Shown here: positions 165 through 24,238 of the stretch, one piece after another | How positions within the stretch are numbered: position 1 is the first letter of the stretch | Layout: every line of letters begins with the position of its first letter | DNA from: Nitrospirota bacterium | Lineage (GTDB): Bacteria > Nitrospirota > Thermodesulfovibrionia > Thermodesulfovibrionales > BMS3Bbin05 | Direction of reading: 5' to 3' | NCBI GenBank assembly: GCA_020351835.1 | Contig: CP070669.1 | Span: 1,575,999-1,601,392 of the forward strand | DNA: 25,394 nucleotides | Notes under the pieces: model-generated | What the model saw: only the letters and a program-made list of their open reading frames with translations | Database searches by the model: none | Told to the model about the DNA's origin: nothing | Translations under genes and position numbers: made by a program

Positions 165-192
165 TTGACATAGTTTTAAAGCGATGTATAAT
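165..192 (+). promoter_or_regulatory. consensus sigma70-type promoter upstream of the precursor gene
   Basis: TTGACA (165-170), 16-nt spacer, TATAAT (187-192); both hexamers are perfect consensus matches, about 100 nt upstream of the ATG at 301. Confidence 0.7.
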
Positions 193-300
193 TAGAAAAT
201 ATACCTATTGATAAATGTTTCTTTATAGGTAATGTCTATATAGATTGTTTCAACTCACGATCAGGGTCTTTTTTGTGATTTTTATCGAAAGGAGGTGAAT

Positions 301-513
301 ATGGACCTTAAAGAGCTGAAAAAGATACTTTCCGGTCTAGGGCTCGCCGGCCTTATAGCCGGTGCAAGCTTAATGGCTGCCGGCTGTGCAAGCACTGGCG
401 CAAGCGGTTGAGGAGCAGATAAGGCACCACCGGCCAAAAGCGGCTGAAGTGGTAGCTCCGGTGCAGGTAGCACCGATAATCCCGAAGGGAAAAGTGGTTG
501 AAGTTGATCTTAA
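301..513 (+). CDS. sbtA: selenocysteine-containing radical SAM-modified target peptide (selenobiotic / SbtA-like RiPP precursor); TGA at 409, 445 and 499 read as Sec, TGA 505 ambiguous, TAA at 511
   Basis: Strong Shine-Dalgarno AAAGGAGGTG just upstream of ATG 301. Readthrough product MDLKELKKILSGLGLAGLIAGASLMAAGCASTGASG-U-GADKAPPAKSG-U-SGSSGAGSTDNPEGKSG-U-S. Three TGAs sit in the same SG-TGA context. The two KSG-TGA-S blocks (436-450 and 490-504) differ only at synonymous third positions. SECIS-like hairpin follows TGA 445. Next gene is a radical SAM/SPASM protein. Confidence 0.82.
459..475 (+). promoter_or_regulatory. bacterial SECIS-like upper stem-loop for the UGA at 445-447
   Basis: CGGTGC (459-464) - AGGTA loop - GCACCG (470-475): perfect 6-bp stem, 17 nt total, starting 11 nt after the UGA. 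Loop GU lies at +20/+21 from the UGA, as in E. coli fdhF (UGA-N11-GGUUGCAGGUCUGCACC). Confidence 0.72.
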
Positions 514-550: not shown

Positions 551-586
551 AGGAACGGTGTGTTAAATAAATAGCACACCGTTCCT
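551..586 (+). terminator. stem-loop between precursor and maturase, possible (partial) terminator
   Basis: AGGAACGGTGTG (551-562) pairs perfectly with CACACCGTTCCT (575-586), 12 bp, followed by a modest T-rich stretch TATTTAG. Confidence 0.6.
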
Positions 587-639: not shown

Positions 640-2253
640 ATGAGTAAGAAAAACGAAAGAAACGGGCTGATAAATGTACTTGAGGTCTTCCCAAGGACTG
701 CATCGATGTTAAATGACATAGTTAACGAAGAGATCATAAATAAATTCGGGATAGATCTTGAGCGTTTTCCGGATGAAGTAGAAAATATAAAGGAAAGCTA
801 TTCTCTTAAGGATTATATTGGTGATGTTGCAAGAATTGAGTATGCTCGTTTTAAAGCTAAAAATACTGAAGAAAGCATAGAGGAGCCGGAAAATAGAACG
901 GTCAATCCGTCATTTCAGCTTTTACAGGTCTCGTGGCAGAACCTTATATCGATCTTTAACGGAGATGACAAGGGTAAGGGTAATGGTAATGACATTATCA
1001 GTGGTGACCAGCTGATAATGGTTTGGAAGGACAAGGATGAAGATGAAGTAAGAATGGAGTATGCTTCGTCTGACGACCTGCTTGCGCTCAAGATAGTGGT
1101 TGAGGGGATAGGGCCTGAAGATTTAGTTAGTGATACAGACCTCACTATCGGCAAGATCGATAATGTTATAAGGAGTTCCATCGAAAAGGGGATATTGATA
1201 GCACCACCTTCTTCATTGGTCAGAGACCCGGATATCTTTAAGGAGATAAAGGATACTGGTGAGGAGTTCCTGGTTGCCGATACATTCACTTTGCAGTGGC
1301 ATATAACACAGAGCTGTGACCTTCACTGTAAACATTGTTACGACAGGAGCGACAGGACAAATACAGACCTTGCTGATGCTATAAGGATACTTGATGATAT
1401 GAGATCATTCTGCCTCGAGAGAAATGTAAAAGGGCATATTTCTTTCAGTGGAGGTAATCCCCTTATGCATCCTGATTTCCTCGATATATACAATGCTGCT
1501 TCCGACAGAGGTTTTTCTTTGGCTATCCTCGGTAATGTTGCTTCTAGAAAGCAACTAAAAGATATTATTGCTATACAGATGCCGGGATTTTACCAGGTAA
1601 GTCTCGAGGGGCTTGAAGGTCATAATGACAGTATTCGCGGTGAGGGATATTTCAGGAGAGTAATGGATTTCCTGACGGTGCTAAAGGAGTTGGGTATCTA
1701 TTCGATGGTTATGCTCACACTTACAAATGAAAATATCGATCAGGTGATCCCTCTTGCGGAACTCCTCAAGGGTAAAGTAGATAGCTTTACATTTAACCGC
1801 CTGTCTCTTGTAGGTGAGGGTGCATCTCTCAAAATGGCAGACAATGAAAAGTTCAGGAAATTCTTAGAGGACTATATTGAGCTGGCAGGAAAGAACAAGC
1901 ATGTAAGGCTAAAGGATAACTTTATCAATATTATCAGGAGAGAAAAGGGCCAAAACCCGTTCGGAGGATGCGCGGGGTACGGGTGCAGTGCCGCATTCAA
2001 TTTTATCACGGTTTTGCCGGACGGAGAGGTGCATGCATGCAGAAAGTTTCCATCAAAGATCGGCAGAATAATGGATGTCTCTCTTTCGGAACTGTATGAC
2101 TCGGAAATGGCGAAGAAATACCGTTCGGGACCTGAGGAATGCAGGGGTTGCGATATCCGTGCAGTATGCGGTGGATGTATGGCTGTAGCATACGGTTGCG
2201 GGAAGGACGTATTTAAAGAAAAGGACCCTTTTTGCTTCATGCGTTTGGTATAG
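640..2253 (+). CDS. sbtM: radical SAM/SPASM peptide maturase (selenobiotic / thio(seleno)oxazole-type, SbtM-like)
   Basis: 537 aa. CxxxCxxC motif in FTLQWHITQSCDLHCKHCYDRS; C-terminal SPASM pattern CSAAFNFITVLPDGEVHAC...CRGCDIRAVCGGCMAVAYGC...FC; lies directly downstream of the Sec-containing precursor. Confidence 0.85.
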   Translation: MSKKNERNGLINVLEVFPRTASMLNDIVNEEIINKFGIDLERFPDEVENIKESYSLKDYIGDVARIEYARFKAKNTEESIEEPENRTVNPSFQLLQVSWQNLISIFNGDDKGKGNGNDIISGDQLIMVWKDKDEDEVRMEYASSDDLLALKIVVEGIGPEDLVSDTDLTIGKIDNVIRSSIEKGILIAPPSSLVRDPDIFKEIKDTGEEFLVADTFTLQWHITQSCDLHCKHCYDRSDRTNTDLADAIRILDDMRSFCLERNVKGHISFSGGNPLMHPDFLDIYNAASDRGFSLAILGNVASRKQLKDIIAIQMPGFYQVSLEGLEGHNDSIRGEGYFRRVMDFLTVLKELGIYSMVMLTLTNENIDQVIPLAELLKGKVDSFTFNRLSLVGEGASLKMADNEKFRKFLEDYIELAGKNKHVRLKDNFINIIRREKGQNPFGGCAGYGCSAAFNFITVLPDGEVHACRKFPSKIGRIMDVSLSELYDSEMAKKYRSGPEECRGCDIRAVCGGCMAVAYGCGKDVFKEKDPFCFMRLV

Positions 2254-2418: not shown

Positions 2419-2904
2419 ATGCACTTTATTTACATGTTTCTCATCATGTTCGGCTTCTGGATCGTGCTATCGGGGAAGTTCGATGCTTTCCATATAACAC
2501 TCGGGGTAATATCATGCCTGATAGTTTCATTTCTTTCTCTTGACCTTTTCTTCCATGAAACGAAGAAAAAGGGCAGGATCGCAGAGGTCGTACGCTTTTT
2601 GAGCTATATTCCATGGCTTGTAAAGGAGATCGTGCTGGCGACGATCCATGTTGCATTTATAGCGCTAAGGCCAAATGTCAAAGACAATATAGATCCCAAG
2701 GTTATCATGTTCAAAACCAGGCTTAAAAAGGACCTCTCGAAGGTGACATTCGCCAATTCAATAACTCTTACCCCGGGGACCATAACCATTAAGGTCTCAG
2801 ATGATGAGTTCTATGTTCACGCCCTGACTAAGAAGACGGCCGAGGGTCTGCCGGGAGAGATGGAAGAGCGGGTAGGTAAGGTCTTCAAGGAGTTCGGGGA
2901 ATGA
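2419..2904 (+). CDS. mrpE: Mrp-type cation/proton antiporter subunit E
   Basis: 161 aa. Hydrophobic N-terminus followed by the typical MnhE/MrpE C-terminal half (NSITLTPGTITIKV-like: SITLTPGTITIKVSDDEFYVHAL). Confidence 0.88.
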   Translation: MHFIYMFLIMFGFWIVLSGKFDAFHITLGVISCLIVSFLSLDLFFHETKKKGRIAEVVRFLSYIPWLVKEIVLATIHVAFIALRPNVKDNIDPKVIMFKTRLKKDLSKVTFANSITLTPGTITIKVSDDEFYVHALTKKTAEGLPGEMEERVGKVFKEFGE

Positions 2905-3221
2905 CGACATATTTCATTTACGCAGGTGTAGGACTCTGCTTTCTTATGTTCCTGGCGCTCTATCGTGTGATACTCGGGCCCACGGCAATAGACAGGCTGA
3001 TGGGCGTTAATGTGATCGGCACGAAGACGACCGTTCTTCTTATCGTGATAGGTCTTATTTACGGCAGGGTGGAGATGTTCGTAGATATTGCTATTGCCTA
3101 CGCTTTACTGAACTTCATTGCAACTGTAGGTGCTGCAAGGTATTTTCAGCATCGAAAGAACCTTTGCTCGGTTGGTTTCGGGCTCAGGCACAAGGAAGAT
3201 AAGGGGGATACCACGGAATGA
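2901..3221 (+). CDS. mrpF: Mrp-type cation/proton antiporter subunit F
   Basis: 106 aa. RVILGPTAIDRLMGVNVIGTKTT...DIAIAYALLNFIATVGAARY is the classic MrpF/MnhF signature; start overlaps mrpE stop. Confidence 0.88.
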   Translation: MTTYFIYAGVGLCFLMFLALYRVILGPTAIDRLMGVNVIGTKTTVLLIVIGLIYGRVEMFVDIAIAYALLNFIATVGAARYFQHRKNLCSVGFGLRHKEDKGDTTE

Positions 3222-3550
3222 TCATTGCTCTGACGGTATTACTGACGGTCACAGGGTTCTTTTTCTTCTTTGCTACAACGATCGGACTGATAAGGTTCCC
3301 TGATTTCTATTCAAGGATGCATGCCGCGGGAAAGGGTGATACCCTGTCATCGCTGCTTATGCTTTTGGGCCTTGCAATTTACAGTCTTCATCATTTTTCG
3401 TTCGGCAACTTTCTTGTATCACTTAAGATAATTTTTATAATGGTATTTATATTCCTCGCGAGTCCTACGGCAACACACGCTATTATCGATGCAGGGTTCG
3501 AGTCCGGCGTAAAGCCGTGGACGAAGGAAGAGGAAAGGGCGGAAGAATGA
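3218..3550 (+). CDS. mrpG: Mrp-type cation/proton antiporter subunit G
   Basis: 110 aa. GLIRFPDFYSRMHAAGKGDTLSSLLMLLGLAIY is typical of MrpG/MnhG. Confidence 0.88.
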   Translation: MIIALTVLLTVTGFFFFFATTIGLIRFPDFYSRMHAAGKGDTLSSLLMLLGLAIYSLHHFSFGNFLVSLKIIFIMVFIFLASPTATHAIIDAGFESGVKPWTKEEERAEE

Positions 3551-4560
3551 TCTGGCAGATAGACCTGATGGTGCTGACGCTTATAGTGTTCTGTGCTTTT
3601 TCGGCCGTAATGGTAAAGGACCTGTTGAGCGCGGCAATAATATTCGGTGCATACAGTTTTTTAATGTGCCTTCTCTGGACCGAAATGGGTGCGGTTGATG
3701 TGGCCTTTACAGAAGCGGCGGTTGGGGCGGGCGTAAGTACCATATTCATGATAGCGGCTATATTCAGGACCTCCCGTTCGGTCAAGCATAGGAGCAGGGG
3801 CAGGAGGTTCTATAAGCTGATCGGGTTCTTTGCAGCTGCTGTGACCGGTATGGTTCTGTTATACGGTCAGAGCGATTTCCCCGGATGGGCCGATCCGAAC
3901 TCACCGGCGAGCTCTCATCTTTCACCATACTTTATAACCCATACCATAAGCGATACGGCCGTGCCTAACATTGTTACCTCGGTGCTCGCAGATTACAGAG
4001 GGTTTGATACTATGTTCGAAACGGCGGTAATCTTTACTGCCGGAATAGCCGTTATATTCGTTTTAAGGCAATACCGGCGTGATCAGACCGATGTTGCCGG
4101 TACTGATGAGGTTGCCTACCAGAGCCCTATCATTCAAACCGTATCACGACAGATGGTGCCGTTCATACAGTTGTTCGCCCTTTACGTCGTGGCACATGGC
4201 CACCACAGTCCTGGTGGCGGGTTCCAGGGAGGAGTGATACTTGGAGCAAGTTTCATCCTTGTCGGGCTCAGCTACGATCTAAGGTCGGTCCTTAAGAAGA
4301 TGGGTGAGGGCCCTAACATTATCTTTGGTAACCTGGGGGTATTTCTGTATGCCGGGATCGGTGCCGTATGCATACTTCTAGGGGCTAATTTTCTTGATTA
4401 CAGTGTCTTAAGCAGGATCCTGCCGGCAACAGATAGTGTGATGGCAAGATCCCATGGAATACTGGGTGTCGAGATAGGAGTAGCAATTGCAGTAATGGCT
4501 ATCATGATAGCTATATATGTGAATATATCATCTCACGGAAAATATGATAAGGGGCTTTAA
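3547..4560 (+). CDS. fused MbhD/DUF4040-like domain plus Mrp subunit B
   Basis: N-terminal DLLSAAIIFGAYSFLMCLLWTEMGAVDVAFTEAAVGAG resembles MbhD/DUF4040 domains; C-terminal GHHSPGGGFQGGVILGASFILVGLSYD is the MnhB signature. The track start 3517 is probably upstream of the true ATG 3547, which gives an ATGA overlap with mrpG. Confidence 0.85.
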   Translation: MIWQIDLMVLTLIVFCAFSAVMVKDLLSAAIIFGAYSFLMCLLWTEMGAVDVAFTEAAVGAGVSTIFMIAAIFRTSRSVKHRSRGRRFYKLIGFFAAAVTGMVLLYGQSDFPGWADPNSPASSHLSPYFITHTISDTAVPNIVTSVLADYRGFDTMFETAVIFTAGIAVIFVLRQYRRDQTDVAGTDEVAYQSPIIQTVSRQMVPFIQLFALYVVAHGHHSPGGGFQGGVILGASFILVGLSYDLRSVLKKMGEGPNIIFGNLGVFLYAGIGAVCILLGANFLDYSVLSRILPATDSVMARSHGILGVEIGVAIAVMAIMIAIYVNISSHGKYDKGL

Positions 4561-4563
4561 TAG

Positions 4564-4947
4564 ATGGATGTAATAATCGCCAGCTATAATTACTGGATAT
4601 ACATACTTTTGATGATGATCGGACTGTATGCCATGCTTTCCAAGAACAATCTCGTAAAGAAGATCATCGGTATGAGCATATTCCAGGCCGCAATCATCGT
4701 CTTCTATGTATCGATCGGTGCTAAGAGGGGCGCTACGATCCCGATCATTGAGCATGGGCACGGCCATGGTGCCGCAGAGCATGCGGTAAATGTTATGAAC
4801 TACGTAAACCCGCTCCCCCATGTGCTGATGCTGACTGCCATTGTTGTATCGGTGAGTACGCTCGGTGTGGCCCTTGCCATTATCCTTGGGATACACAGGA
4901 GGTATGGAACGGTCGAGGAGGACGAGATCATGGAGAAGATACAATGA
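4564..4947 (+). CDS. mrpC: Mrp subunit C / NuoK-like protein
   Basis: 127 aa, three predicted TM segments; VLMLTAIVVSVSTLGVALAIILGIHRRYGTVEEDEI typical of MnhC. Confidence 0.85.
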   Translation: MDVIIASYNYWIYILLMMIGLYAMLSKNNLVKKIIGMSIFQAAIIVFYVSIGAKRGATIPIIEHGHGHGAAEHAVNVMNYVNPLPHVLMLTAIVVSVSTLGVALAIILGIHRRYGTVEEDEIMEKIQ

Positions 4948-6437
4948 TCTCACCGGAGCAGTACCCTGTACTGATAGTGGTTATTCCACTTTTGTCGGCC
5001 TTCATTATTAATGTGATCGGATGGTTCAGAAAAGGTTTCTCTTATCCGCTTATCGTTCTTTCCCTCATAATCACCTTTTATCTGTCAGTCAGCACATTGC
5101 TTCAGGTGGTAGATGGAGGTGCTATCAGTTACCGCCTTGGCGGATGGCCTCCTCCTTTCGGAATAGAATACGTTATAGACCATCTTAACGCTTTAGTTCT
5201 TGTAGTAATATCTTTTGTGAGCCTGGCTGCAGCCGTTTTTTCGAAGGAGAGCGTTAAAAAAGAGCTTCCCGACAGAATACCCCAGTACTATACTCTTTTT
5301 ATACTTCTGGTAACGGGCCTGCTCGGAATGACGATAACCGGGGATGCCTTTAACTTATATGTACTTATAGAGATCGCGGCATTAACTTCATATGCTCTTA
5401 TAGCATTTGGCCGTGACAGAGCGCTGGTATCCAGCTTTAACTACGTGATAATGGGTACCGTTGGCGCCAGTTTTTATTTGCTTGGAGTTGGCCATCTTTA
5501 CATCATGACCGGATCGCTTAATATGGGTGACCTGCTCTCAATACTGCCGGCGATATCAGGTTCCAGGGCTATTTTCGTAGCTTTCCTGCTTATAATAGTC
5601 GGTATCTGGACCAAGATGGCCTTTTTCCCGCTTCATGGCTGGCTTCCTAACGCTTATACTTATGCCCCTACCGCAACGGGTGTCCTCGTTGCCCCTCTCA
5701 TGACCAAGGTGTCTGTATATATAATGATAAGGCTGATGTTCTCGGTATTTTCTGCCGATTATGTGTTCAATACCCTTAACGTCCATGACATTATTGTCTG
5801 GATGGCTGTTGCGGCTATTATCGGCGGCTCTCTGCTTGCTCTCACGCAGACAGATTTCAGGAGGATGCTTACCTATCTTATAGTTGCTGAAGTAGGTTAC
5901 ATGGTGGGTGGTGTATGGCTGGCTAACAGCGCCGGCATAACCGGGGCTATATTGCATATCCTGAACGATGCCCTGATGACACTCTGCCTGTTCCTTGTAG
6001 CAGGAATAATCTACCACAAGACCAGAGGACATCATCTGGATGATATCAGAGGGCTATACCGCAAGATGCCGTTTACGATGGCGGCATTTACAGTTGGGGC
6101 CCTTTCCATGATAGGAGTCCCTCCAACAGTGGGTTTCTTCAGCAAGTGGTATCTGATACTCGGTGCTATCGATGCCGGGCAGTGGGGTTTTATGGCAGCG
6201 CTTATCATATCGAGCCTCATAAATGCCGTCCTGTTCTTCAAGGTCATTGAGGTAGGATACTTTGAGCCGATGCACGGCCATCACGATGATGGACACCATG
6301 AGGTGACTATCGATGAGGCTCCATTCAGCATGCTGGCACCATTATATGTTATTGCCGTAAGCTTAATTGTCGTAGGTATATATACGAGCAGCATTATTAC
6401 CAATATCATAGCTCATGCGGTACCGAAAGGATTGTAG
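4944..6437 (+). CDS. mrpD: Mrp subunit D-like proton-conducting antiporter subunit (NuoN/M-like)
   Basis: 497 aa. Proton_antipo_M-type motifs: AFFPLHGWLPNAYTYAPTATGVLVAPLMTKVSVY, GVPPTVGFFSKWYLI; ATGA overlap with mrpC. Confidence 0.88.
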   Translation: MISPEQYPVLIVVIPLLSAFIINVIGWFRKGFSYPLIVLSLIITFYLSVSTLLQVVDGGAISYRLGGWPPPFGIEYVIDHLNALVLVVISFVSLAAAVFSKESVKKELPDRIPQYYTLFILLVTGLLGMTITGDAFNLYVLIEIAALTSYALIAFGRDRALVSSFNYVIMGTVGASFYLLGVGHLYIMTGSLNMGDLLSILPAISGSRAIFVAFLLIIVGIWTKMAFFPLHGWLPNAYTYAPTATGVLVAPLMTKVSVYIMIRLMFSVFSADYVFNTLNVHDIIVWMAVAAIIGGSLLALTQTDFRRMLTYLIVAEVGYMVGGVWLANSAGITGAILHILNDALMTLCLFLVAGIIYHKTRGHHLDDIRGLYRKMPFTMAAFTVGALSMIGVPPTVGFFSKWYLILGAIDAGQWGFMAALIISSLINAVLFFKVIEVGYFEPMHGHHDDGHHEVTIDEAPFSMLAPLYVIAVSLIVVGIYTSSIITNIIAHAVPKGL

Positions 6438-6447
6438 GCCAGAACAA

Positions 6448-7917
6448 ATGGAAACAAAAATATGCATCAGGCCCCTTCTTGCGATACTCGTGTCTCTTAT
6501 AGCCGTGGCCCCTATCGTACTTAGCAGTAAAAGGCCGAACCTTCGCGAGGGATGGACATTTATTGCCGGTATCATAAAGTTCTCTTTGGTCGCATCTATG
6601 GTACCGCTCGTTCTTGATGGTGTAAGGCTGGAGTATACCGTAGCTCAGGTTCTGCCCGGAATGGCGATCAAATTGGCGGTCGACCCGATGGGTTTGATGT
6701 TCGCATTAGTATCTTCTTCATTATGGATAGTAACCTCGGCTTATTCCATCGGTTACATGCGCGGGCTCGATGAGCATAGCCAGACGAGATACTTCTCTTT
6801 CTTTGCCATTGCGCTTTCATCTACCATAGGGGTAGCGTTCTCTGCAAACCTGTTCACCATGTACCTGTTCTATGAGATGCTTTCCCTGGCCACTTATCCT
6901 CTTGTTACTCACCATCAGGACGATGAGTCGCGATACTCGGGGAGAAAATACCTCGCATTCATACTTGGCACATCAATAGGTTTCGTGCTCCCTGCAATGC
7001 TGATATCTTACAACCTTGCGGGCACCCTGGAGTTTGCCAATAATGGCTTCCTTTCAGGTACTACATCAAAGACAGTAATGACGGTTCTGCTTATAATGTT
7101 CGTGTTCGGATTTGCAAAAGCTGCGATAATGCCGTTCCATGGATGGCTTCCTGCCGCGATGGTCGCCCCTACACCCGTCAGCGCTCTTCTTCATGCTGTT
7201 GCTGTTGTTAAGGTCGGAGTCTTCTCGATATTCCGCATCATAACAGGAGTATTCGGTACCGATATGCTGAGGTCGCTTGAACTCGGGACCGTTGTCGCTT
7301 ATCTGGCAGCATTCACAATAATAATAGCGTCACTTATAGCACTTTCACAGGACGGGCTGAAAAGAAGGCTGGCCTTTTCGACGATAGGTCAGCTTTCCTA
7401 CATAGTTCTTGGAGCAGCACTTCTTTCCCCGAAAGGTATGTCCGGTGGACTTGTCCATATAGCTATGCATGCATTCGGCAAGATAACCCTGTTCTTCTGC
7501 GCAGGTGCAATATATGTTGCTACCAGGAAAAAGAATATCAGTGATATGGTCGGTATCGGGAAAAGGATGCCCGTGACGATGATAGCTTTTCTGATAGGTT
7601 CTATGAGCGTTATTGGATTGCCTCCGACCGGAGGGTTCTTCAGTAAGTGGTATCTTGTTCTCGGAACTATAGAAGCTGATCAGATCGTTATGCTATTTGT
7701 TCTTTTAACAAGCTCTCTTCTTAATGCTGCATACTTTCTGCCTATTGTATATAAGGCATTCTTCTGTACTGCAGAGGAATCTATGTTTGATGATAAGGTA
7801 GCTGAGGCACCTGTGTGGTGCGTTGCACCGCTTTCTTTAACGGCCTTGGTCTCTATCGCTTTGTTCTTTTATCCGACCTTATTTATGAGATTAGCAGAGA
7901 TGGCATTAGGTGTCTGA
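6448..7917 (+). CDS. second proton-conducting antiporter-like subunit (NuoL/M/N or MrpA/D-like)
   Basis: AAIMPFHGWLPAAMVAPTPVSALLHAVAVVKVGVF and GLPPTGGFFSKWYLVLG motifs. Likely start ATG 6448 (METKICIRPLL), since the track start 6415 overlaps the upstream gene. Confidence 0.85.
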   Translation: METKICIRPLLAILVSLIAVAPIVLSSKRPNLREGWTFIAGIIKFSLVASMVPLVLDGVRLEYTVAQVLPGMAIKLAVDPMGLMFALVSSSLWIVTSAYSIGYMRGLDEHSQTRYFSFFAIALSSTIGVAFSANLFTMYLFYEMLSLATYPLVTHHQDDESRYSGRKYLAFILGTSIGFVLPAMLISYNLAGTLEFANNGFLSGTTSKTVMTVLLIMFVFGFAKAAIMPFHGWLPAAMVAPTPVSALLHAVAVVKVGVFSIFRIITGVFGTDMLRSLELGTVVAYLAAFTIIIASLIALSQDGLKRRLAFSTIGQLSYIVLGAALLSPKGMSGGLVHIAMHAFGKITLFFCAGAIYVATRKKNISDMVGIGKRMPVTMIAFLIGSMSVIGLPPTGGFFSKWYLVLGTIEADQIVMLFVLLTSSLLNAAYFLPIVYKAFFCTAEESMFDDKVAEAPVWCVAPLSLTALVSIALFFYPTLFMRLAEMALGV

Positions 7918-7927
7918 GGAGGTTAAT

Positions 7928-8176
7928 ATGCAAGGTGAAAAAGAAAAGGATTATTTCGAAAGGCCGGGCAATATCAAGAAGCTTTGGATAGCTCTGTATG
8001 TTGTGTGCGCTTTAACTATAGTATTTGAGCTGTTCATTGACAGGACACCTCATTTTGGTATTGATAGAATATTCGGTTTCTATGCATTGCTTGGATTTGT
8101 CTCTTGTGCGATCCTGATCATTATTGCTAAGGTGATCGGATTTATCCTGAAGAAGAACGAGGACTATTATGATTAA
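7928..8176 (+). CDS. small two-TM protein embedded in the Mrp-like operon
   Basis: SD GAGGAGG at 7916-7922, ATG 7928, MQGEKEKDYFERPGNIKKLWIALYVVCALTIVFELFI...KKNEDYYD (82 aa); overlaps the next gene start. Confidence 0.7.
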   Translation: MQGEKEKDYFERPGNIKKLWIALYVVCALTIVFELFIDRTPHFGIDRIFGFYALLGFVSCAILIIIAKVIGFILKKNEDYYD

Positions 8177-9929
8177 TATACATCCTGGATGGCTTTTAAT
8201 TGCAGGCGCACTGCTTTTGCCGTTGATCGGTGGTAAAGCGCGCAACTGGTTCGTTATATTTCTTCCTGCCGCGGCATTGTACATTATTTCGCAGCTCCAG
8301 CCGGGCATGTCACTGCAGTATCATTTCTTCGGGTATGAACTTACTTTCCTCAGGGTAGACAGGTTAAGCAAGATATTCGGTTATATCTTTACTCTTAATG
8401 CTTTTGCCGCATTCATATATGCCTTTTACGTAAAGGATAGTACTCAGCACATGGCGGCTCTTTTTTATATTGGCAGTGCGCTGGGATCGGTTTTCGCCGG
8501 AGACCTCGTGTCCTTATATTTTCACTGGGAAGTAATGGCGATCGCGTCTACTTTCCTGATCCTTTCAAGGAGAACGAAAAAGGCGATGGGTGCCGGATTA
8601 AGGTACATACTTATGCATATTTTCGGAGGTCTCTGCCTGTTGGCGGGAATAGTGCTTTATATCTCAAAAACAGGCTCGATCGATTTTAACGCTATGACCG
8701 AAAGGACCGCGGCAACGTATCTCATACTCGTCGGGATACTTGTTAACGCAGCAGCACCTCCTCTTTCCGCGTGGCTTTCAGATGCCTATCCCGAAGCCAC
8801 AGTTACCGGTGGGGTTATACTGAGCGCGTATACCACAAAGACCGCAGTGTATACCCTGATAAGAGGATTTCCCGGCTGGGAGATACTTATAGTGGTCGGT
8901 TGCATAATGACGATCTACGGTATTATATATGCGCTTCTTGAGAATGACATGCGTCGTATACTTGCCTATAGCATTATTAACCAGGTCGGTTTCATGGTGA
9001 CGGGCGTAGGGATCGGTACTGTCATGTCATTGAACGGGGCCGCAGCGCACGCTTTTGCTCATATCATATACAAAGCGCTGCTATGGATGTCCGCAGGTTC
9101 GGTCCTTTACATGACAGGTAAAAGCAAGTGTACAGAGCTCGGGGGTCTGTATAAAACTATGCCTTGGACAATGATTTTTGGTACGATAGGGGCACTTGCG
9201 ATCTCTTCGTTCCCAGGCACGAGTGGCTTCACGACAAAAACACTTATTATAGAGAGCTCGGTCCATCAGCATCTCTTTTGGGTATGGATGGTACTGGAGA
9301 TCGCTTCAGCCGGCGTTTTCCTGCATGCCGGAATTAAGTTCCCCTATTTTGTGTTCTTTGCCAAGGACAGGGGCCTCCGTCCCGGAGAAACGAATAGGTC
9401 GATGCTGGTTGCGATGGCCTTTATGGCGTTCCTGTGTATCTTCCTCGGGTTGTTCCCGGGTCCTCTTTATGATATTCTCCCTTTTGAAATGGAACACTAT
9501 CACGCATATTCCTTTGCACATGTTACTACTCAGTTGCAGCTCTTAATGCTGTCAGCTCTTGTTTTCTTCCTGTTCCTTCCTCTTCTTAAAAGAACTGACA
9601 CTATTGCGATCGATACCGATTGGATCTACAGAAGAGGAGGTGCTTTTTTCTATTCTGTGGTTGACAGGGTTCTAAATGGGTTTAATGAGGTTGTGGAAAG
9701 ATTGGTGGTAAAGGGGTTGGTCCGGTCCATTGTCAATTTTTCACAGCTCGCTCCTGCTCTGGTGCTCTCTGCACTTATATATCCCTATTGGGTAATAAGC
9801 GGTTTTGACAAGAAAGAGAGGGCACAAAGGAAGGAAGAGCTGTATCGTGACATCAATACGGGAGCTATGTCGGTTGGCTTAATATCCATCTCTGTTCTCC
9901 TTTATTTAGGGATATTGTTTATCTTTTAA
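8169..9929 (+). CDS. third proton-conducting antiporter-like subunit
   Basis: 586 aa, many TMs; AAAPPLSAWLSDAYPEATVTGGVILSAYTTKTAVYTLIRGFPG, AFAHIIYKALLWMSAGSVLYMTGKSKCTELGGLYKTMP are Proton_antipo_M-type motifs. Confidence 0.85.
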   Translation: MINIHPGWLLIAGALLLPLIGGKARNWFVIFLPAAALYIISQLQPGMSLQYHFFGYELTFLRVDRLSKIFGYIFTLNAFAAFIYAFYVKDSTQHMAALFYIGSALGSVFAGDLVSLYFHWEVMAIASTFLILSRRTKKAMGAGLRYILMHIFGGLCLLAGIVLYISKTGSIDFNAMTERTAATYLILVGILVNAAAPPLSAWLSDAYPEATVTGGVILSAYTTKTAVYTLIRGFPGWEILIVVGCIMTIYGIIYALLENDMRRILAYSIINQVGFMVTGVGIGTVMSLNGAAAHAFAHIIYKALLWMSAGSVLYMTGKSKCTELGGLYKTMPWTMIFGTIGALAISSFPGTSGFTTKTLIIESSVHQHLFWVWMVLEIASAGVFLHAGIKFPYFVFFAKDRGLRPGETNRSMLVAMAFMAFLCIFLGLFPGPLYDILPFEMEHYHAYSFAHVTTQLQLLMLSALVFFLFLPLLKRTDTIAIDTDWIYRRGGAFFYSVVDRVLNGFNEVVERLVVKGLVRSIVNFSQLAPALVLSALIYPYWVISGFDKKERAQRKEELYRDINTGAMSVGLISISVLLYLGILFIF

Positions 9930-10096: not shown

Positions 10097-11059
10097 ATGT
10101 TGCGAATGAGACATCTTATTCTTATTATTTCTGTAGTTATGGTCGTTGTATCTGTATTTGGGGTTGCTTTCGGATCTGAAGTGGCCGAAGCACCTGCAGC
10201 TGTAGAAGGGGATGGCCAAGCCTGGTGGTTCTGGCCGCTAGTCCTGCTCATACTCTGTTTCTTCCTTGGTGTATTTGCGGTCCTTGCTGGTGTAGGGGGC
10301 GGTGTTCTTTACGTCCCTATCGTTAGTGGGTTCCTGCCTTTTCATCTTGATTTCGTAAGGGGGGCCGGATTGATAGTCGCCCTTGCAGGTGCACTTGCAG
10401 CCGGCCCGGGACTGCTTAAGAAGGGCATGGCCGACCTGAGACTTGCCATACCTGTTGCGCTGATAGCGTCTACTTGCGCAATATTCGGTGCGATGATAGG
10501 GTTGGCACTTCCTACACATATAGTTCAGACCCTTCTCGGAGCCACGATACTCGGTATAGTTTTGATTATGATAAAGGCCAAGAAGTCAGAGTTCCCGGAG
10601 GTCCCTAATCCTGATAGATTGTCACAATCACTCAGAATAATGGGCGTATACTATGAGCCGACCAGGAAAGAGGATATCAACTGGCAGATTCACAGGACGC
10701 CTCTCGGTCTCGGCCTGTTCGTCTTTATAGGAATCATGGCCGGTATGTTCGGGCTCGGCGCCGGTTGGGCAAATGTACCGGTCCTTAACCTTGTTATGGG
10801 AGCGCCGATAAAGATATCCGTTGCTACGAGTAAGTTCCTTTTATCGATAACGGATACATCGGCAGCCTGGATATACCTTAATAATGGTGCTGTTCTTCCT
10901 TTGATGGTGGTTCCGTCAGTGGTAGGGATAATGCTGGGATCGTTCGTCGGAGTAAGGGTCCTTGCCGTTACGAAGCCGTCTGTAATAAGGATACTCGTAA
11001 TTGCCGTTCTGGGTGTTGCCGGCCTTAAGGCACTTCTTAAGGGTCTTGGTATAGGATAG
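10097..11059 (+). CDS. TauE/SafE (TSUP) family sulfite/sulfonate exporter-like permease
   Basis: 320 aa. Repeated TauE-like halves: GVGGGVLYVPIVSGFLPF and MFGLGAGWANVPVLNLVMGAPIKISVATSKFLLSITDTSAAWIYLNNGA. Confidence 0.85.
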   Translation: MLRMRHLILIISVVMVVVSVFGVAFGSEVAEAPAAVEGDGQAWWFWPLVLLILCFFLGVFAVLAGVGGGVLYVPIVSGFLPFHLDFVRGAGLIVALAGALAAGPGLLKKGMADLRLAIPVALIASTCAIFGAMIGLALPTHIVQTLLGATILGIVLIMIKAKKSEFPEVPNPDRLSQSLRIMGVYYEPTRKEDINWQIHRTPLGLGLFVFIGIMAGMFGLGAGWANVPVLNLVMGAPIKISVATSKFLLSITDTSAAWIYLNNGAVLPLMVVPSVVGIMLGSFVGVRVLAVTKPSVIRILVIAVLGVAGLKALLKGLGIG

Positions 11060-11086
11060 ATAAGGGATAAATACAGGAGGATAAAT

Positions 11087-11497
11087 ATGGAAAATAAAGC
11101 AACAGAAGAACAGATACTATATGCGAATCTGTTGAATAAAGGAATGCTGATAGGGCTTGTTGGTCTAGTTATCACCTTCGTTGTATATGGAGGGGGAATT
11201 TTGAAGCCTTTTATTCCGATCGGTGATGTTCAGAACTACTGGGTGCTCCCTGTAAGTGAATATCTCGAAAAAAGCGGAATGCATGCCGGTTGGTGGTGGC
11301 TTAGTAATCTGAAGTTCGGTGATCTGCTGAATTTTCTGCCGATCGCTTTTCTTTCAGCAGTAACGATCTTTTGTTATGCAGCTATAGTGCCGGGGCTTTT
11401 AAAGAAGAAGGATACGGCATACGTTGTTCTTGCCATACTTGAGGTGATAGTGCTTGTGGTAGCAGCCTCAGGGATACTAGGTTCCGGAGGACATTAA
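11087..11497 (+). CDS. small membrane protein co-transcribed with TauE (possibly DUF1634-like)
   Basis: 136 aa with three to four predicted TM segments, 27 nt downstream of tauE; family assignment is from context only. Confidence 0.6.
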   Translation: MENKATEEQILYANLLNKGMLIGLVGLVITFVVYGGGILKPFIPIGDVQNYWVLPVSEYLEKSGMHAGWWWLSNLKFGDLLNFLPIAFLSAVTIFCYAAIVPGLLKKKDTAYVVLAILEVIVLVVAASGILGSGGH

Positions 11498-11519
11498 AGG
11501 GCACTTGGTTAATTATGAA

Positions 11520-11545
11520 GGGCGGCCCGAGGCCGCCCTTTTTTA
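11520..11545 (+). terminator. rho-independent terminator
   Basis: GGGCGGCC (11520-11527) - CGA - GGCCGCCC (11531-11538) followed by TTTTTTATT. Confidence 0.9.
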
Positions 11546-11582
11546 TTGACCTGCCAATTGTTAGGCTGTATATTGAACTGTA

Positions 11583-12482
11583 ATGGAACTGCTTAAGATA
11601 ATTTTCCCAGCTTCAGGGGTAGAAACATATCTGTTCATTCCTCCACTCGTTGCCTTTGTTATATCTTTTTTCTCTTCAATGGCAGGTCTGTCCGGTGCAT
11701 TCTTTATCCTTCCGTTCCAGATGAGCGTATTCGGTTTTACGTCTCCTTCTGTAAGCTCAACAAACTTCCTGTATAACGTAGTAAGTATTCCTGGAGGGGT
11801 GTTAAGATTCATTCGGGAAAAACGGATGTCCTGGCCTCTCATTTTTGTTATAGTTGCTGGAACATTTCCAGGTGTCTTCGCTGGTTACTTTATAAGAATA
11901 AGATACCTTCCCGACCCGAAAGCATTCAAGCTGTTCGTTGGCCTTGTATTGTTTTATATAGGGATAAGGTTGATAAGAGGTTTCAGGAATAAAAGGAAAA
12001 GGGCCGATCAGGGTGATGCAAGTATGTTCGTTATTTCTAATGTCAGTTATAGCCTGAAAAGAATAAGTTACGATTTTAATGGTGAGACGTTCTCGTTCAG
12101 TGTTCCCGCTATGTTCTTGCTGTCCGCTATAGTAGGAATTATCGGTGGCATTTATGGTATCGGAGGGGGTGCCATCATAGCTCCATTCTGTGTTTCTGTG
12201 TTCGGGTTACCCGTATATACTGTTGCCGGTGCCGCTCTTATGGGGACGTTGATAACGTCCGTTGCGGGGGTATTTGTATACAGCATTGTTCCTTTCGGCG
12301 ATGGTATGGCGGCTCCTCCTGACTGGTCCCTGGGAGCGCTTTTCGGCCTGGGGGGGCTTGCGGGTATATATCTGGGTGCGAAGGTCCAGAGATTCATGCC
12401 CGAACGCGTGATAAAGGTAATACTTGCACTAATTATATTCTGGGTATCAGCAAGATATATATATCAGTTTATAGCCGGGTAG
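11583..12482 (+). CDS. second TauE/SafE (TSUP) family permease
   Basis: 299 aa. SSMAGLSGAFFILPFQMSVFGFTSPSVSSTNFLYNVVSIPGGVLRF and GGIYGIGGGAIIAPFCVSVFGLPVYTVAGAALMGTLITSVAGVF. Confidence 0.85.
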   Translation: MELLKIIFPASGVETYLFIPPLVAFVISFFSSMAGLSGAFFILPFQMSVFGFTSPSVSSTNFLYNVVSIPGGVLRFIREKRMSWPLIFVIVAGTFPGVFAGYFIRIRYLPDPKAFKLFVGLVLFYIGIRLIRGFRNKRKRADQGDASMFVISNVSYSLKRISYDFNGETFSFSVPAMFLLSAIVGIIGGIYGIGGGAIIAPFCVSVFGLPVYTVAGAALMGTLITSVAGVFVYSIVPFGDGMAAPPDWSLGALFGLGGLAGIYLGAKVQRFMPERVIKVILALIIFWVSARYIYQFIAG

Positions 12483-16038: not shown

Positions 16039-16134
16039 ATTGCGTTTTCTTTGGTAAGAGGGGTTCGTAAAGATCGGAAACCCTGTGTTTTATCTGGGAA
16101 AAGCTAGTTCAAAATAACTAATTGGAGGTTGCTC

Positions 16135-16788
16135 ATGAGACTCGTCTTACTTGGTGCGCCGGGTGCCGGGAAAGGTACACAGGCCAAGAAGCTTATTGAG
16201 AAATATCAGATCCCACAGATCTCTACAGGTGATATCCTCAGAAAGGCCGTCGCAGACGGAACTCCGCTTGGAAAAGAGGCTAAGTCATACATGGATAAGG
16301 GTGAGCTTGTACCGGATTCGGTCGTTATAGGGCTGGTCAAGGAGAGGCTTTCCCAGGACGATTGCACGAACGGTTATATACTGGACGGATTCCCGAGGAA
16401 CACTGCTCAGGCAGAGACACTTGATAGTGTGCTCGCAGACATGAACGCGTCACTGGACGTAGCACTTAGCGTGGATGTAGACATGGACATCCTTATGAAG
16501 AGGCTTACAGGAAGAAGGACATGCAAGTCATGCGGTCAGATGTTCAATGTGCATTTCTCTGCACCTAAGAAAGAAGGGATCTGCGATAAGTGTGACGGTG
16601 AGCTTTATCAGAGGGATGATGATCAGGAAGAGACGATCAAGAAGAGGCTTGATGTGTACGAGGAACAGACCGCTCCGTTGATAGATTATTATTCGAACAA
16701 GGGGATACTTACCAGTGTAAATGGTGTAGGCAATATGGAAGATATCTTTAAAGAAGTCATAGCGAAGCTTGACACGGTTACGAAATAA
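16135..16788 (+). CDS. adk: adenylate kinase with zinc-type LID
   Basis: [38 protein letters not shown] cysteines CKSCGQMFN...CDKCDG. SD GGAGG at 16124-16128 supports ATG 16135 rather than the TTG at 16129. Confidence 0.95.
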
Positions 16789-16811
16789 ATAACCTTATTA
16801 AGGAGGAAGAG

Positions 16812-18023
16812 ATGGCATTAGTTAATCCGCATGGTAAGGACAAAAAGCTGAAACCTCTTATTCTCGAGGGAAGTGAGCTCGAGGCAGCGAAGAAGAAGGC
16901 TGAATCACTTAAGAAAGTACCTATGACCTCAAGGGAGACCGGTGACCTCATTATGTTAGGTATCGGCGGTTTTACCCCGCTTGAGGGTTTTATGGGATAC
17001 GAGGACTGGAAGGACGTATGTGACGACATGAAAACCTCGGATGGAACGTTCTGGCCTATCCCGATCACTCTGTCAGCCGACAAGGATCTCGCCGACAGCA
17101 TCAAAGAGCATGAGGAAGTAGCTCTTGTTGATGAGGAGAGTGGCGAGACCATGGGTATCATGACAGTACGTGAGAAGTACACAATAGACAAGGCTCATGA
17201 GTGCCAGCAGGTATTTACAACGACCGATATGGAACATCCGGGTGTCGCAAAGGTTATGGAACAGAAAGAGGTAAACCTGGCCGGTCCGGTGCAGGTCCTG
17301 AGCGAAGGTTCATTTCCGACAGAGTATAAAGGTATCTACATGACACCGGCGGAGTCAAGGAAGCTCTTCTCAGAAAAAGGCTGGTCGACAGTTGCAGCGT
17401 TCCAGACAAGAAATCCTATGCACCGTTCTCATGAGTATCTTGCAAAGATAGCCATCGAGATATGTGATGGTGTTTACATCCACATGCTCCTTGGTAAGCT
17501 AAAGGCGGGAGATATCCCGGCAGACGTAAGACAGAACGCTATTGATACACTTACCGAGAACTACTTCACAAAGGAAACAGTTTCAGTTGGCGGATATCCA
17601 CTCGATATGAGATATGCTGGCCCAAGAGAGGCGCTTTTGCATGCGGTGTTCAGGCAGAACTTCGGATGCAGCCACCTTATCGTAGGTCGTGACCATGCAG
17701 GTGTTGGTGACTACTACGGACCCTTCGATGCACATGAGATATTTGATAAGATCCCGGAAGGCGCACTCGAGACACAGCCGCTCAAGATCGATTGGACATT
17801 CTGGTGCCACAAATGTGATCAGATGGCATCAATGAAGACATGTCCGCATGGTAAGGATGACAGGCTCATACTAAGCGGTACAAAGCTAAGAAAAATGCTC
17901 TCAGAGGGCGAGGATGTATCAGAGAAGTTCAGTCGTCCCGAGGTTCTTAAGATCCTGAGGAATTACTATGAGGGTCTCACCGAAAAGGTCGAGATCAAGA
18001 TGCACAAGCATGCTGAAGGATAA
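16812..18023 (+). CDS. sat: sulfate adenylyltransferase (ATP sulfurylase), dissimilatory type
   Basis: 403 aa. [55 protein letters not shown]-like [10 protein letters not shown]. Confidence 0.96.
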
Positions 18024-18115
18024 AGCAGGATTATGGGTTGCCATCATTTTGATGGCTGAGTTTTGCAAACAAGCGGCTTACTTTAGGTCGCAAACATCAA
18101 GAAGGAGGTATATGT

Positions 18116-18553
18116 ATGCCTAGTTATGTGATCACTGAAAAATGTGACGGCTGTAAAGGTCAGGAGAAGACAGCCTGTATGTACATCTGTCCTAATGACC
18201 TGATGAAGCTGGATCGCGACAGGATGAAGGCATGGAACCAGGAACCCGATCAGTGCTGGGAGTGCTACAACTGTGTTAAGATCTGCCCTCAGCAGTCAAT
18301 CGAGATCAGGGGTTACCAGGATTTCAATCCGCTCGGTGGAAATGTTATTCCTCTCAGGGGTACAGATTCCATTATGTGGACTATCAAGTTCAGGAACGGC
18401 GTTCTCAAGAGGTTCAAGTTCCCTATCAGGTCGACCGCTGAAGGTTCAGTAGATCCTTATGCAGGTAAGCCGGAAGCTGACCTCTCAAAGATCAAGCAGC
18501 CAGGTCATTTTACGCAGCAGGGTGCTGGCGTAGAGATGCCAACAATAAAGTAA
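18116..18553 (+). CDS. aprB: adenylylsulfate reductase subunit beta (2x[4Fe-4S])
   Basis: 145 aa. MPSYVITEKCDGCKGQEKTACMYICPNDLMKLD...CWECYNCVKICPQQSIEIRGY. Confidence 0.96.
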   Translation: MPSYVITEKCDGCKGQEKTACMYICPNDLMKLDRDRMKAWNQEPDQCWECYNCVKICPQQSIEIRGYQDFNPLGGNVIPLRGTDSIMWTIKFRNGVLKRFKFPIRSTAEGSVDPYAGKPEADLSKIKQPGHFTQQGAGVEMPTIK

Positions 18554-18572
18554 TAAAGGAGGTTTAAAAAAG

Positions 18573-20576: not shown

Positions 20577-20591
20577 TTATAGCTTCAAATT

Positions 20592-20618
20592 GGATGGGCA
20601 GGTCATTCCTGCCCATCC
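20592..20618 (+). other. strong intercistronic hairpin between aprA and qmoA
   Basis: GGATGGGCAGG (20592-20602) - TCATT - CCTGCCCATCC (20608-20618), perfect 11-bp stem followed by AAAAAAATTTTG. Confidence 0.6.
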
Positions 20619-20703
20619 AAAAAAATTTTGCTTTGAGCCTTCAGGTCTGAAGATCTTTAAACGATAATCAGGCTTGAATCTTCAAAGCGAACGGAGGAAA
20701 AAC

Positions 20704-21960
20704 ATGGCTGAAAACAAGGATATTCTTGTAATCGGAGGCGGAATTAGCGGTCTTACTACAGCTATTGAGGCAGCCGAAGCCGGATACAATGCGACTATAG
20801 TAGAGCGCAATCCGTATCTGGGTGGACGTGTCGCACAGCTGTTCAAGTATTTCCCAAAGCTCTGTCCTCCCTATTGTGGTTTAGAGATAAACTTCAAGAG
20901 GATCAAGACAAACCCCAGGATAACGTTCTATACAGGGGCAGAGGTAGAGAACATCGGCGGCAACGAAGGTGATTTCACAGCTTCTGTAAAGGTCAACGCA
21001 AGGAAGGTAAATGAGAAATGCACAGCATGCAATGCGTGCGTAGAGGCATGTCCCGTTGAAAGACCGAACGATTTTAATTTCGGTATGGACACGACCAAAG
21101 CTATATATCTTCCGCATGATCTGGCGTTCCCGATGAGATACGTTATAGACAGCAGTGTCTGCAAGGGGTCGGAATGCAACAAGTGTAAGGAAGCATGTAA
21201 GTACGATGCAATAGACCTGGACATGCAGGATAAGGCGGTCGAGATCAATGTCGGCAGTATAGTGACTGCAACCGGATGGAACCCTTATGATGCGACCAAG
21301 ATGGATAACCTTGGTTTTGGAAAAATCAAAGATGTCGTTACCAATATGATGATGGAAAGGCTGTCAGCACCTAACGGTCCTACAAAGGGTGCTATCAAGA
21401 GACCGTCTGACGGAAAGGATGTTCAGAGCATAGCCTTTGTTCAGTGTGCAGGCTCAAGGGATGAGAACCATCTGCCCTATTGTTCTGCGATATGCTGCAT
21501 GGCATCTCTGAAACAGGCTACATATATAAGAGAAAAGAACCCTGAATCGGATGTCTATATCTTCTATATAGATCTCCGGGCACCGGGCAAGTATGAGGAT
21601 TTCCTCAACAAGATAGATGCTGATGAAAAGGTAAAGCTGATCAAGGGAAAGGTCGCCAAGATCGAGCAGGATGGTGACGGAGTAGTTGTAACTGCTGAGG
21701 ATGTTATAGGCGGCGGCAAGATCAACCAGAAGGTAGACATGGTCGTACTGGCAGCGGGAATGGAATCAGCACTTAAGGGAAGCAACCTCTTGTCCACAAT
21801 TAAGACAGAGGAGAGTGATTTTGCAGTGTCAGAAGGTCAGACTGAAGGCATATACGCTGCCGGTGTAGCAAGCAGACCGAACGATGTTACAACCTCGGTC
21901 CAGGGGGCTACCGGCGCCGCGTTGAAAGGCATACAGAGTCTGGTGAGGAGGTCTGAATAA
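20704..21960 (+). CDS. qmoA: quinone-interacting membrane-bound oxidoreductase subunit A (HdrA-like flavoprotein)
   Basis: MAENKDILVIGGGISGLTTAIEAAEAGYNATIVERNPYLGGRVAQLFKYFPKLCPPYCG. Likely start ATG 20704 with SD ACGGAGG, rather than 20674. Confidence 0.93.
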   Translation: MAENKDILVIGGGISGLTTAIEAAEAGYNATIVERNPYLGGRVAQLFKYFPKLCPPYCGLEINFKRIKTNPRITFYTGAEVENIGGNEGDFTASVKVNARKVNEKCTACNACVEACPVERPNDFNFGMDTTKAIYLPHDLAFPMRYVIDSSVCKGSECNKCKEACKYDAIDLDMQDKAVEINVGSIVTATGWNPYDATKMDNLGFGKIKDVVTNMMMERLSAPNGPTKGAIKRPSDGKDVQSIAFVQCAGSRDENHLPYCSAICCMASLKQATYIREKNPESDVYIFYIDLRAPGKYEDFLNKIDADEKVKLIKGKVAKIEQDGDGVVVTAEDVIGGGKINQKVDMVVLAAGMESALKGSNLLSTIKTEESDFAVSEGQTEGIYAAGVASRPNDVTTSVQGATGAALKGIQSLVRRSE

Positions 21961-24198: not shown

Positions 24199-24238
24199 GT
24201 ATTGTGAAAATAATTAACCTTTTATCGGAGGTATAAAT

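Follow-up and report, generated by a model that had tools for sequence, protein, structure and literature searches.

A thio(seleno)oxazole RiPP cassette with a probable three-selenocysteine precursor in a sulfate-reducing Nitrospirota genome

We analyzed a 25,394-nucleotide stretch (hereafter the window) of a Nitrospirota bacterium genome (GenBank assembly GCA_020351835.1, contig CP070669.1, positions 1,575,999 to 1,601,392 of the forward strand), near the start of which an initial annotation had flagged a short reading frame interrupted by TGA codons. We conclude that positions 301–507 (sbtA, the precursor) and 640–2253 (sbtM, the maturase) very probably constitute a two-gene cassette for a thio(seleno)oxazole RiPP (ribosomally synthesized and post-translationally modified peptide) in a sulfate-reducing Nitrospirota genome, with three selenocysteine (Sec, U) residues in the precursor and a possibly exported product. 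Family membership, the conservation of the UGA columns, the link between RNA hairpins and UGA codons and the assignment of the stop codon were all computed in the present analysis. The elements of the cassette are as follows, in coordinates of the window.

291 to 295, plus strand: Shine-Dalgarno sequence GGAGG, read directly from the sequence, with the ATG 5 nt downstream
301 to 507, plus strand: sbtA coding sequence, 68 codons including three for Sec, with TGA 505–507 as probable stop and a back-up TAA at 511–513; assigned from the match to TIGR04081, the codon alignment to two close relatives (loci L006 and L086) and 67 related peptides
301 to 384, plus strand: residues 1–28 (MDLKELKKILSGLGLAGLIAGASLMAAG), the conserved SbtA leader, matching TIGR04081 and with a putative role in export
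385 to 387, plus strand: Cys29 (TGT), the +1 Cys of a lipobox-like M-A-A-G-C, by pattern match
409 to 411, plus strand: UGA 1, read as Sec37, context ASG-U-GA
412 to 459, plus strand: extended hairpin past UGA 1, an atypical candidate selenocysteine insertion sequence (SECIS), minimum free energy -19.7 kcal/mol, z -2.65
445 to 447, plus strand: UGA 2, read as Sec49, context KSG-U-SG
459 to 475, plus strand: SECIS-like hairpin CGGUGC-AGGUA-GCACCG, 11 nt past UGA 2, matching the family consensus
499 to 501, plus strand: UGA 3, read as Sec67, context KSG-U-S
505 to 507, plus strand: fourth TGA, probable true stop codon
515 to 527, plus strand: SECIS-like hairpin GUGCA-GUU-UGCAC in the 3' untranslated region (UTR), 13 nt past UGA 3, matching the family consensus
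640 to 2253, plus strand: sbtM, thio(seleno)oxazole radical S-adenosylmethionine (SAM)/SPASM maturase, 537 aa, matching TIGR04082 and Pfam Radical_SAM and SPASM

Scored with U written as C, the sbtA peptide matches TIGR04081 ('SbtA family thio(seleno)oxazole RiPP natural product precursor') over residues 1–26, at 37.8 bits for its 68–70 aa form and 40.8 bits for a 36 aa form (curated cutoff 30.5). The sbtM gene starts 133 nt downstream on the same strand, an arrangement also found in related loci, and its product matches TIGR04082 ('thio(seleno)oxazole modification radical SAM maturase SbtM') over residues 16–533 at 709.7 bits, against a cutoff of 350. The initial annotation had proposed a Sec-containing RiPP precursor of Haft's 'selenobiotic' family, to be checked against the TIGR04081 model; with both matches above their curated cutoffs, that assignment holds. 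SbtM is 100% identical to GenBank UCG77610.1, which is named 'selenobiotic family peptide radical SAM maturase' and belongs to a Nitrospirota metagenome-assembled genome (MAG) with a 2.29 Mb contig. Its CxxxCxxC motif (C226/C230/C233) is invariant across 37 homologues, its SPASM domain lies at 449–532, and PF13186 and TIGR04085 both match. An AlphaFold2 model of SbtM (predicted local distance difference test 85.6) places three strands and then three helices at about residues 93–183, ahead of the radical-SAM barrel, and this order is the topology of the RiPP recognition element (RRE), a leader-binding domain. The closest structures to the model are CteB, SuiB, SkfB, PqqE and anSME; CteB and SuiB, which we take to be RRE-bearing maturases, align with it over nearly their full length. 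In the model, residues 93–183 or so probably form an RRE-like unit, which would recognize the leader.

The reading frame itself is easily described. From ATG 301, behind its strong Shine-Dalgarno sequence, only TGA codons (409–411, 445–447, 499–501 and 505–507) interrupt the frame before TAA 511–513, and it translates as MDLKELKKILSGLGLAGLIAGASLMAAGCASTGASG-U-GADKAPPAKSG-U-SGSSGAGSTDNPEGKSG-U-S-(TGA)-S-TAA, with Ser-Gly ahead of each of the first three TGAs (409, 445 and 499); on all of this the initial annotation was accurate. It had further noted that the KSG-U-S block occurs twice with synonymous changes only, and had taken this as a signature of selection on the frame. The two copies (436–450, AAA AGC GGC TGA AGT; 490–504, AAA AGT GGT TGA AGT) do differ by two synonymous third positions alone, but as a sign of selection this is weak evidence by itself, and the open frame is within chance expectation, as 41% of mononucleotide shuffles of 412–504 likewise lack an in-frame TAA or TAG. 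Because the frame by itself does not go beyond chance, the case for selenocysteine rests on the family models and on related sequences.

Related sequences were gathered around the maturase. A scan of genome contigs with the single SbtM protein returned four relatives and a metagenome scan with an alignment supplied further loci, for a collection of 86 loci encoding SbtM relatives; precursors were located with a hidden Markov model (HMM) built from the leaders, which matches in the great majority of these loci. The 86 loci yielded 67 distinct complete SbtA peptides of 54–114 residues, with 0, 1, 2, 3 or 4 in-frame UGAs in 1, 5, 29, 29 and 3 of them, respectively. In 61 of the 67, two to four UGAs fall within an S-[G/S]-U-[S/G]-G motif (in full, [G/A][K/Q]-S-[G/S]-U-[S/G]-G-[S/T]-K), and the residue before the UGA is G at 82, S at 70 and A at 10 of 162 family sites. 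Three Sec in about 70 codons, which had seemed exceptional, is thus not so within the family: three is the commonest count, tied with two.

The closest relatives, L006 by SbtM identity (58%) and L086 by SbtA identity (75%), align codon for codon with the window's sbtA and keep all three UGA columns. Of the codons compared between the window and L086 past the first UGA, 11 are identical, 11 differ synonymously and 9 non-synonymously, and no insertion or deletion breaks the frame. The initial annotation had suggested looking for Cys at the TGA columns of homologues, and the motif indeed either keeps TGA or carries Cys: TGC or TGT stands at the motif in L007, L010, L013, L015, L017, L020 and L032, and of the two sbtA paralogues in L064, one has UGA and the other Cys at all three sites. 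Judged from these comparisons, UGAs 409, 445 and 499 almost certainly encode selenocysteine.

The RNA downstream of the UGAs tells a similar story. A hairpin of at least 5 bp starting 10–20 nt downstream follows 134 of the 162 family UGA sites (83%) versus 968 of 6000 positions taken from these loci as controls (16%), and the core G[U/C]GC-N3-7-GC[A/G]C follows 108 of the 162 versus 42 of the 6000 (0.7%). The loops have an invariant G, then G or U, and the consensus of 102 family hairpins is GGUGCAGGUnGCAC. Where Cys replaces Sec, one of nine sites keeps the hairpin and eight lose it (Fisher p = 1.5e-5, a significance inflated by kinship among sites), so the hairpin tracks the UGA and not the peptide motif. 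The hairpins were picked for pairing, which makes a covariation count circular, and we used the enrichment over controls and the Cys-site control.

Within the window, the 412–459 hairpin consists of a lower stem (412–416/455–459) and an upper stem (426–435/442–453) with an AA bulge and a loop AAAAGC at 436–441; UGA 2 sits in its 3' arm. The same fold is found in L006 and L086, in both of which the A-U pair 427/452 is changed on both sides to U-A. At the other end of the gene, GUGCAGUU(U)GCAC is invariant in six aligned sbtA 3' ends despite differing flanks. The window's GGUGCAGGUAGCACC closely resembles what we take to be the apical element of the E. coli fdhF SECIS, GGUUGCAGGUCUGCACC. With fdhF-type elements it shares a hairpin about 11 nt past the UGA and a G-U-containing apical loop; unlike them, the window's sbtA has three elements within 120 nt, one of them in the 3' UTR, and the element of UGA 1 is longer, bulged, has a different loop and contains the next UGA.

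The hairpins also leave a trace in the peptides. Read in frame, GGUGCAGGU[A/G]GCACC encodes Gly-Ala-Gly-[Ser/Gly]-Thr (window 459–475; L002, L004, L006, L007, L011–L013 and others), and the 459–475 hairpin encodes part of the peptide motif G-A-G-S-T. The G-A-G motif is missing after eight of the nine Cys-for-Sec sites, and the recurrent GAGGT/GAGST/GAVST motif of SbtA cores appears to be dictated by the RNA element. The terminal SECIS in the 3' UTR often starts its stem with the UAG stop itself (AAA-UAGUGCAGUUUGCACUA; L003, L008, L022, L057, L075 and others). A window-wide scan for further in-frame TGAs accompanied by a hairpin gave three candidates, none of them selenoprotein-like; the one that was checked, at 12320, does not share the frame of its gene.

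The chemistry of the family had been called uncharacterized in the initial annotation, a view outdated by enzymology from 2021 that the NCBIfam names of both families match. Haft and Basu (2011) predicted the 'selenobiotic' family (TIGR04081/TIGR04082) in silico; Lewis et al. (2021, Biochemistry) are summarized as showing that SbtM converts Gly-Cys/Sec to a thio(seleno)oxazole in vitro, taking four hydrogens from the Gly-Cys or Gly-Sec unit, with H-atom abstraction at the beta-carbon (PMC9204691; PMC11002830); and the SbtA peptide is said to be longer than originally believed, with 'at least two' Sec according to Bandarian (PMC9204691). The family has been described as limited to Geobacter and 'Desulfbacteria' (PMC9204691), and a 2026 selenoproteome review lists TIGR04081 as 'Selenobacteriocin', with the motif SGUG and two Sec. 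The window shares with this system the leader, Sec in an SG-U-G/S small-residue motif, a SECIS directly downstream and an adjoining radical-SAM/SPASM enzyme, and Gly precedes Sec at all three of its sites. It differs in its host, a Nitrospirota MAG, in its three Sec (versus two in the review's representative and Bandarian's 'at least two', PMC9204691), and in having a lipobox Cys after the leader and a UGA stop one codon past the last Sec. The window's sbtA is a further, probably unannotated member of a known, enzymatically characterized family, and its Sec count is ordinary.

The fate of the modified peptide is suggested by its N-terminus. The leader has the form of a signal peptide: a Lys-rich n-region, a 20-residue hydrophobic region and a lipobox. 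In the PROSITE PS51257-type lipoprotein pattern, K/R near the N-terminus is followed by a hydrophobic stretch free of charged residues and by [LIVMFWSTAG]2-[LIVMFYSTAGCQ]-[AGS]-C, whose Cys falls at residue 15–35. Applied strictly, it matches the window (IAGASLMAAGC, ending at residue 29) and 29 of the 67 relatives; a looser pattern finds a lipobox-like Cys in 33 of the 67, at residue 29 in 27 of them. In every SbtA leader, two basic residues precede a run of roughly 20 hydrophobic ones, and many leaders without a lipobox end the hydrophobic stretch in small residues (VAF-G, HAA-S, NAQ-Q) that could be signal peptidase I sites. Among 57 loci with at least 1 kb of downstream sequence, sbtAM has no conserved neighbors (the largest cluster is present in 6 of the 57), and no protease or exporter is linked to it. 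We propose export by the general secretory pathway because the leader has the form of a lipoprotein signal and no protease or exporter is linked. By analogy with bufferins and with lipobox-bearing RiPP precursors, the product may be exported, lipidated at Cys29 and anchored in the envelope with three seleno-oxazoles, a serious possibility to which we give somewhat less than an even chance. We extend this to the family only tentatively: the 'leader' would be a true secretory signal peptide, of the lipoprotein type in about half of the family, including the window, and of the signal peptidase I type elsewhere, and the periplasmic or lipid-anchored products with two to four seleno-oxazoles would be an anaerobic, radical-SAM selenium counterpart of the copper-binding bufferins.

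Several observations weigh against this picture of a selenocysteine-bearing, exported RiPP. The window contains no selA, selB, selD or tRNA-Sec, so that the Sec competence of the organism is an assumption; ARAGORN finds no tRNA in the window, hence no selC there, and no sel gene occurs among the ten open reading frames (ORFs) scanned between 12.5 and 25.4 kb of the window. The 412–459 hairpin is atypical in that its loop lacks GU and begins 24 nt past UGA 1, and the 515–527 hairpin is weak by itself (5 bp, z -0.27). Rfam shows no SECIS or other credible RNA family, either in the whole window at gathering thresholds or in 250–650 at permissive ones. The family's UGA sites share descent, so Fisher p-values overstate their independence, while the direction of the effect is unambiguous. 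The oxazole chemistry is known from a Geobacter-type enzyme acting on short synthetic peptides, and not from the window's SbtM or a three-site peptide. As to export, the lipobox Cys is missing in about half of the family, and conservation of the leader far exceeds that of ordinary signal peptides, as would suit an enzyme-recognition leader or an uncleaved anchor.

These last two facts suit an alternative that comes close to an even chance, in which the N-terminus of an otherwise identical peptide acts as a conventional RiPP leader, or stays in place as a membrane anchor; the product would be a cofactor of the cytoplasm or a secreted 'selenobacteriocin' whose processing genes are unlinked. Conservation of the leader across phyla is unusual for signal peptides, the RRE-like unit of SbtM would require a conserved leader, and the name given in the 2026 review points the same way. 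What speaks for export, and against this alternative, is that no protease or exporter is linked to sbtAM across the 57 loci, that the leaders are uniformly two basic and roughly 20 hydrophobic residues, and that the window and 29 relatives have a strict lipobox, with the Cys placed exactly at residue 29 in 27 of the 67.

Two known groups of peptides bear on export. Bufferins are 5-thiooxazole peptides made by multinuclear iron oxidases (MNIO), exported via secretory signal peptides, and they bind copper. Bufferins/oxazolins and SbtA have in common a Cys-derived type of heterocycle, a signal-peptide-like N-terminal leader, several modified sites and no dedicated exporter. Bufferins and oxazolins owe their heterocycles to a multinuclear iron oxidase that needs oxygen and works with a partner protein, whereas SbtM is an anaerobic radical-SAM enzyme; bufferins contain sulfur and their copper binding is demonstrated, whereas the window's SbtA would contain selenium. 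No MNIO (DUF692, with DUF2063 partner) is present among the scanned long ORFs of the window, four long ORFs not having been scanned. Since no such enzyme is among the annotated ORFs, bufferins and MNIO RiPPs are a functional analogue of SbtA and not the same class. The RiPP-lipoproteins DybA and NedA have lipobox-bearing precursors processed by the lipoprotein pathway (PNAS 2026, PMC13056109). They share the lipobox with the window's SbtA, so that leader removal and lipidation would fall to the general lipoprotein pathway; their lipidation is established by experiment, whereas that of SbtA is predicted from a sequence pattern, and the modifying enzymes differ.

The initial annotation had also allowed for a fourth Sec, at TGA 505. 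This would give a 70-residue peptide ending U-S-U-S with its stop at TAA 511, for which the frame is open, and close pairs of Sec do occur in the family (S-S-U-S-S-U in L061). We consider it improbable. The column of TGA 505, one codon past the last Sec, holds the stops of L006 and L086 (TAG/TAA); the same U-x-TGA arrangement recurs in L050, L068 and L042, followed by sequence without family character; and the loop of the sole available hairpin, 515–527, would begin 12 nt from TGA 505, too near when compared with 16–26 nt at 134 family sites. Because the relatives' stops align, U-x-TGA recurs in three loci and the hairpin loop is too near, TGA 505 is most likely a real stop, giving a predicted product of 68 residues with three Sec. 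In UGA AGU UGA (499–507), a Sec UGA and the probable stop UGA thus lie one codon apart, with the TAA back-up two codons later, and the two UGAs appear to be told apart only by their distance to the 515–527 hairpin.

Translation ending at the first TGA is less probable still. A 36-residue product would agree with the output of standard gene calling and with a TIGR04081 model that covers the first 26–27 residues only, and the conserved downstream stretch would then be an untranslated RNA structure, the hairpins accounting for much of its conservation. Such a truncated peptide, however, would offer SbtM neither Cys nor Sec in its target motif, homologues hold the frame without insertions or deletions across two to four TGAs, some have Cys codons for TGA in the same motif, and the hairpins vanish where Cys replaces Sec, as expected of a SECIS and not of a UTR element.

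That TGA is a sense codon (Trp or Gly) in the host is next to excluded: a database protein related to SbtA (P0001) has W at all three columns, yet in homologues TGA alternates with Cys and not with Trp or Gly, and TGA is the ordinary stop of 6 of the 23 long ORFs in the window, none of which needs read-through, so the recoding in sbtA is local and not a genome-wide reassignment. P0001 is the public call for L086 767–976, and its caller apparently switched genetic code on a short contig.

Standard ORF calling misses sbtA, as the initial annotation had anticipated: in one relative the caller read TGA as Trp, and the call for another ends just before a KSG motif. A protein database query with C for U found only two relatives of the peptide, which suggests that gene callers rarely report SbtA peptides. 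Two relatives of the precursor are listed under Pfam PF27804 (GSU1558_StbA-like). In the literature, the name SbtA is also used for an unrelated cyanobacterial bicarbonate transporter.

Two further arrangements of sbtA were seen in the collection. Tandem sbtA pairs occur in L008, L040, L044, L047, L060, L066 and L064; typically, one member has the lipobox Cys29 and three Sec, and the other lacks such a Cys and has two Sec. On the minus strand of L062 (2006–2407), an ORF joins an SbtA-like leader that contains a single UGA (AQAA-U-AG) to a C-terminal region of roughly 100 residues that includes CNTCH, a haem c-type CxxCH motif. This ORF may be a Sec-containing cytochrome-like protein that borrows the SbtA leader, and it was left out of the family statistics.

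Two additional elements flank sbtA and bear on its expression.

165 to 192, plus strand: promoter-like site of the sigma-70 type, TTGACA, a 16 nt spacer and TATAAT, with 12 of 12 consensus positions matched; a consensus match only
551 to 586, plus strand: intrinsic-terminator-like hairpin between sbtA and sbtM, 15 pairs followed by the U-rich tail TATTT

Taken with the three-Sec reading, these elements lead us to propose the following sequence of events. Transcription would start from the consensus promoter at 165–192 and translation from ATG 301. The hairpins at 412–459, 459–475 and 515–527 would recruit SelB and Sec-tRNA(Sec), placing Sec at UGAs 409, 445 and 499, and translation would end at UGA 505, which has no hairpin at a suitable distance. 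The terminator-like hairpin probably lets only part of the transcripts reach sbtM; together with the promoter, such attenuation would yield more precursor than enzyme. SbtM probably binds the conserved leader via its RRE-like N-terminal domain and, using two SAM per site, would convert each Gly-Sec to a 5-seleno-oxazole built from Sec and the carbonyl group of the residue before it, with a mass change of -4 Da at each site and -12 Da overall. The modified peptide may then be exported via the general secretory pathway and cleaved ahead of Cys29. The mature product would be a peptide of roughly 40 residues with three seleno-oxazoles, anchored in the envelope, and may have a metal-binding or redox role.

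The remainder of the window encodes an Mrp-type antiporter, two TauE permeases, a CPA2-family cation/proton antiporter, NhaA, Adk, Sat, AprBA and QmoABC, a gene content that makes the host a sulfate reducer. At 16129–25348 lies a complete dissimilatory sulfate-reduction block (adk, sat, aprB, aprA, qmoA, qmoB, qmoC) with no in-frame TGA. An operon for a multisubunit cation/proton antiporter of the Mrp/Mnh type follows sbtM at 2419–9929; its members among the scanned ORFs are MnhE, F and G, a fused MbhD/MbhE/MnhB ORF, a 4L-like subunit and at least one Proton_antipo_M ORF. We considered the Mrp antiporter as part of the sbtAM system and rejected it, as it is not conserved beside sbtAM in other loci, and no other identified gene of the window is linked to sbtAM in other genomes. 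Two TauE/SafE-family permease genes (10097–12482) stand on either side of a 136-residue membrane ORF (11087–11497) without a Pfam match. On the minus strand, positions 1–65 hold the start of a divergent gene, MAKDYKDTLNLPSTGFPMKAN, the product of which presumably resembles the N-terminus of isoleucyl-tRNA synthetase.

Collectively, these findings indicate that two to four Sec in a peptide of 54–114 residues is the rule for SbtA, which places these precursors among the most Sec-dense bacterial gene products. The compact SECIS GUGC-N-G-[G/U]-N-GCAC, found 10–16 nt past the UGA at nearly all sites, could serve for the automatic annotation of sbtA. The absence of a linked protease or exporter, together with the signal-peptide or lipobox form of the leader, offers an experimental handle on the mature product and what it does. 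If the leader is indeed a secretory signal, SbtA products would act as soft-metal chelators or redox groups of the envelope, and the recurrent G-A-G-[G/S]-T would be a mere translation of the SECIS hairpin, with no function in the peptide.

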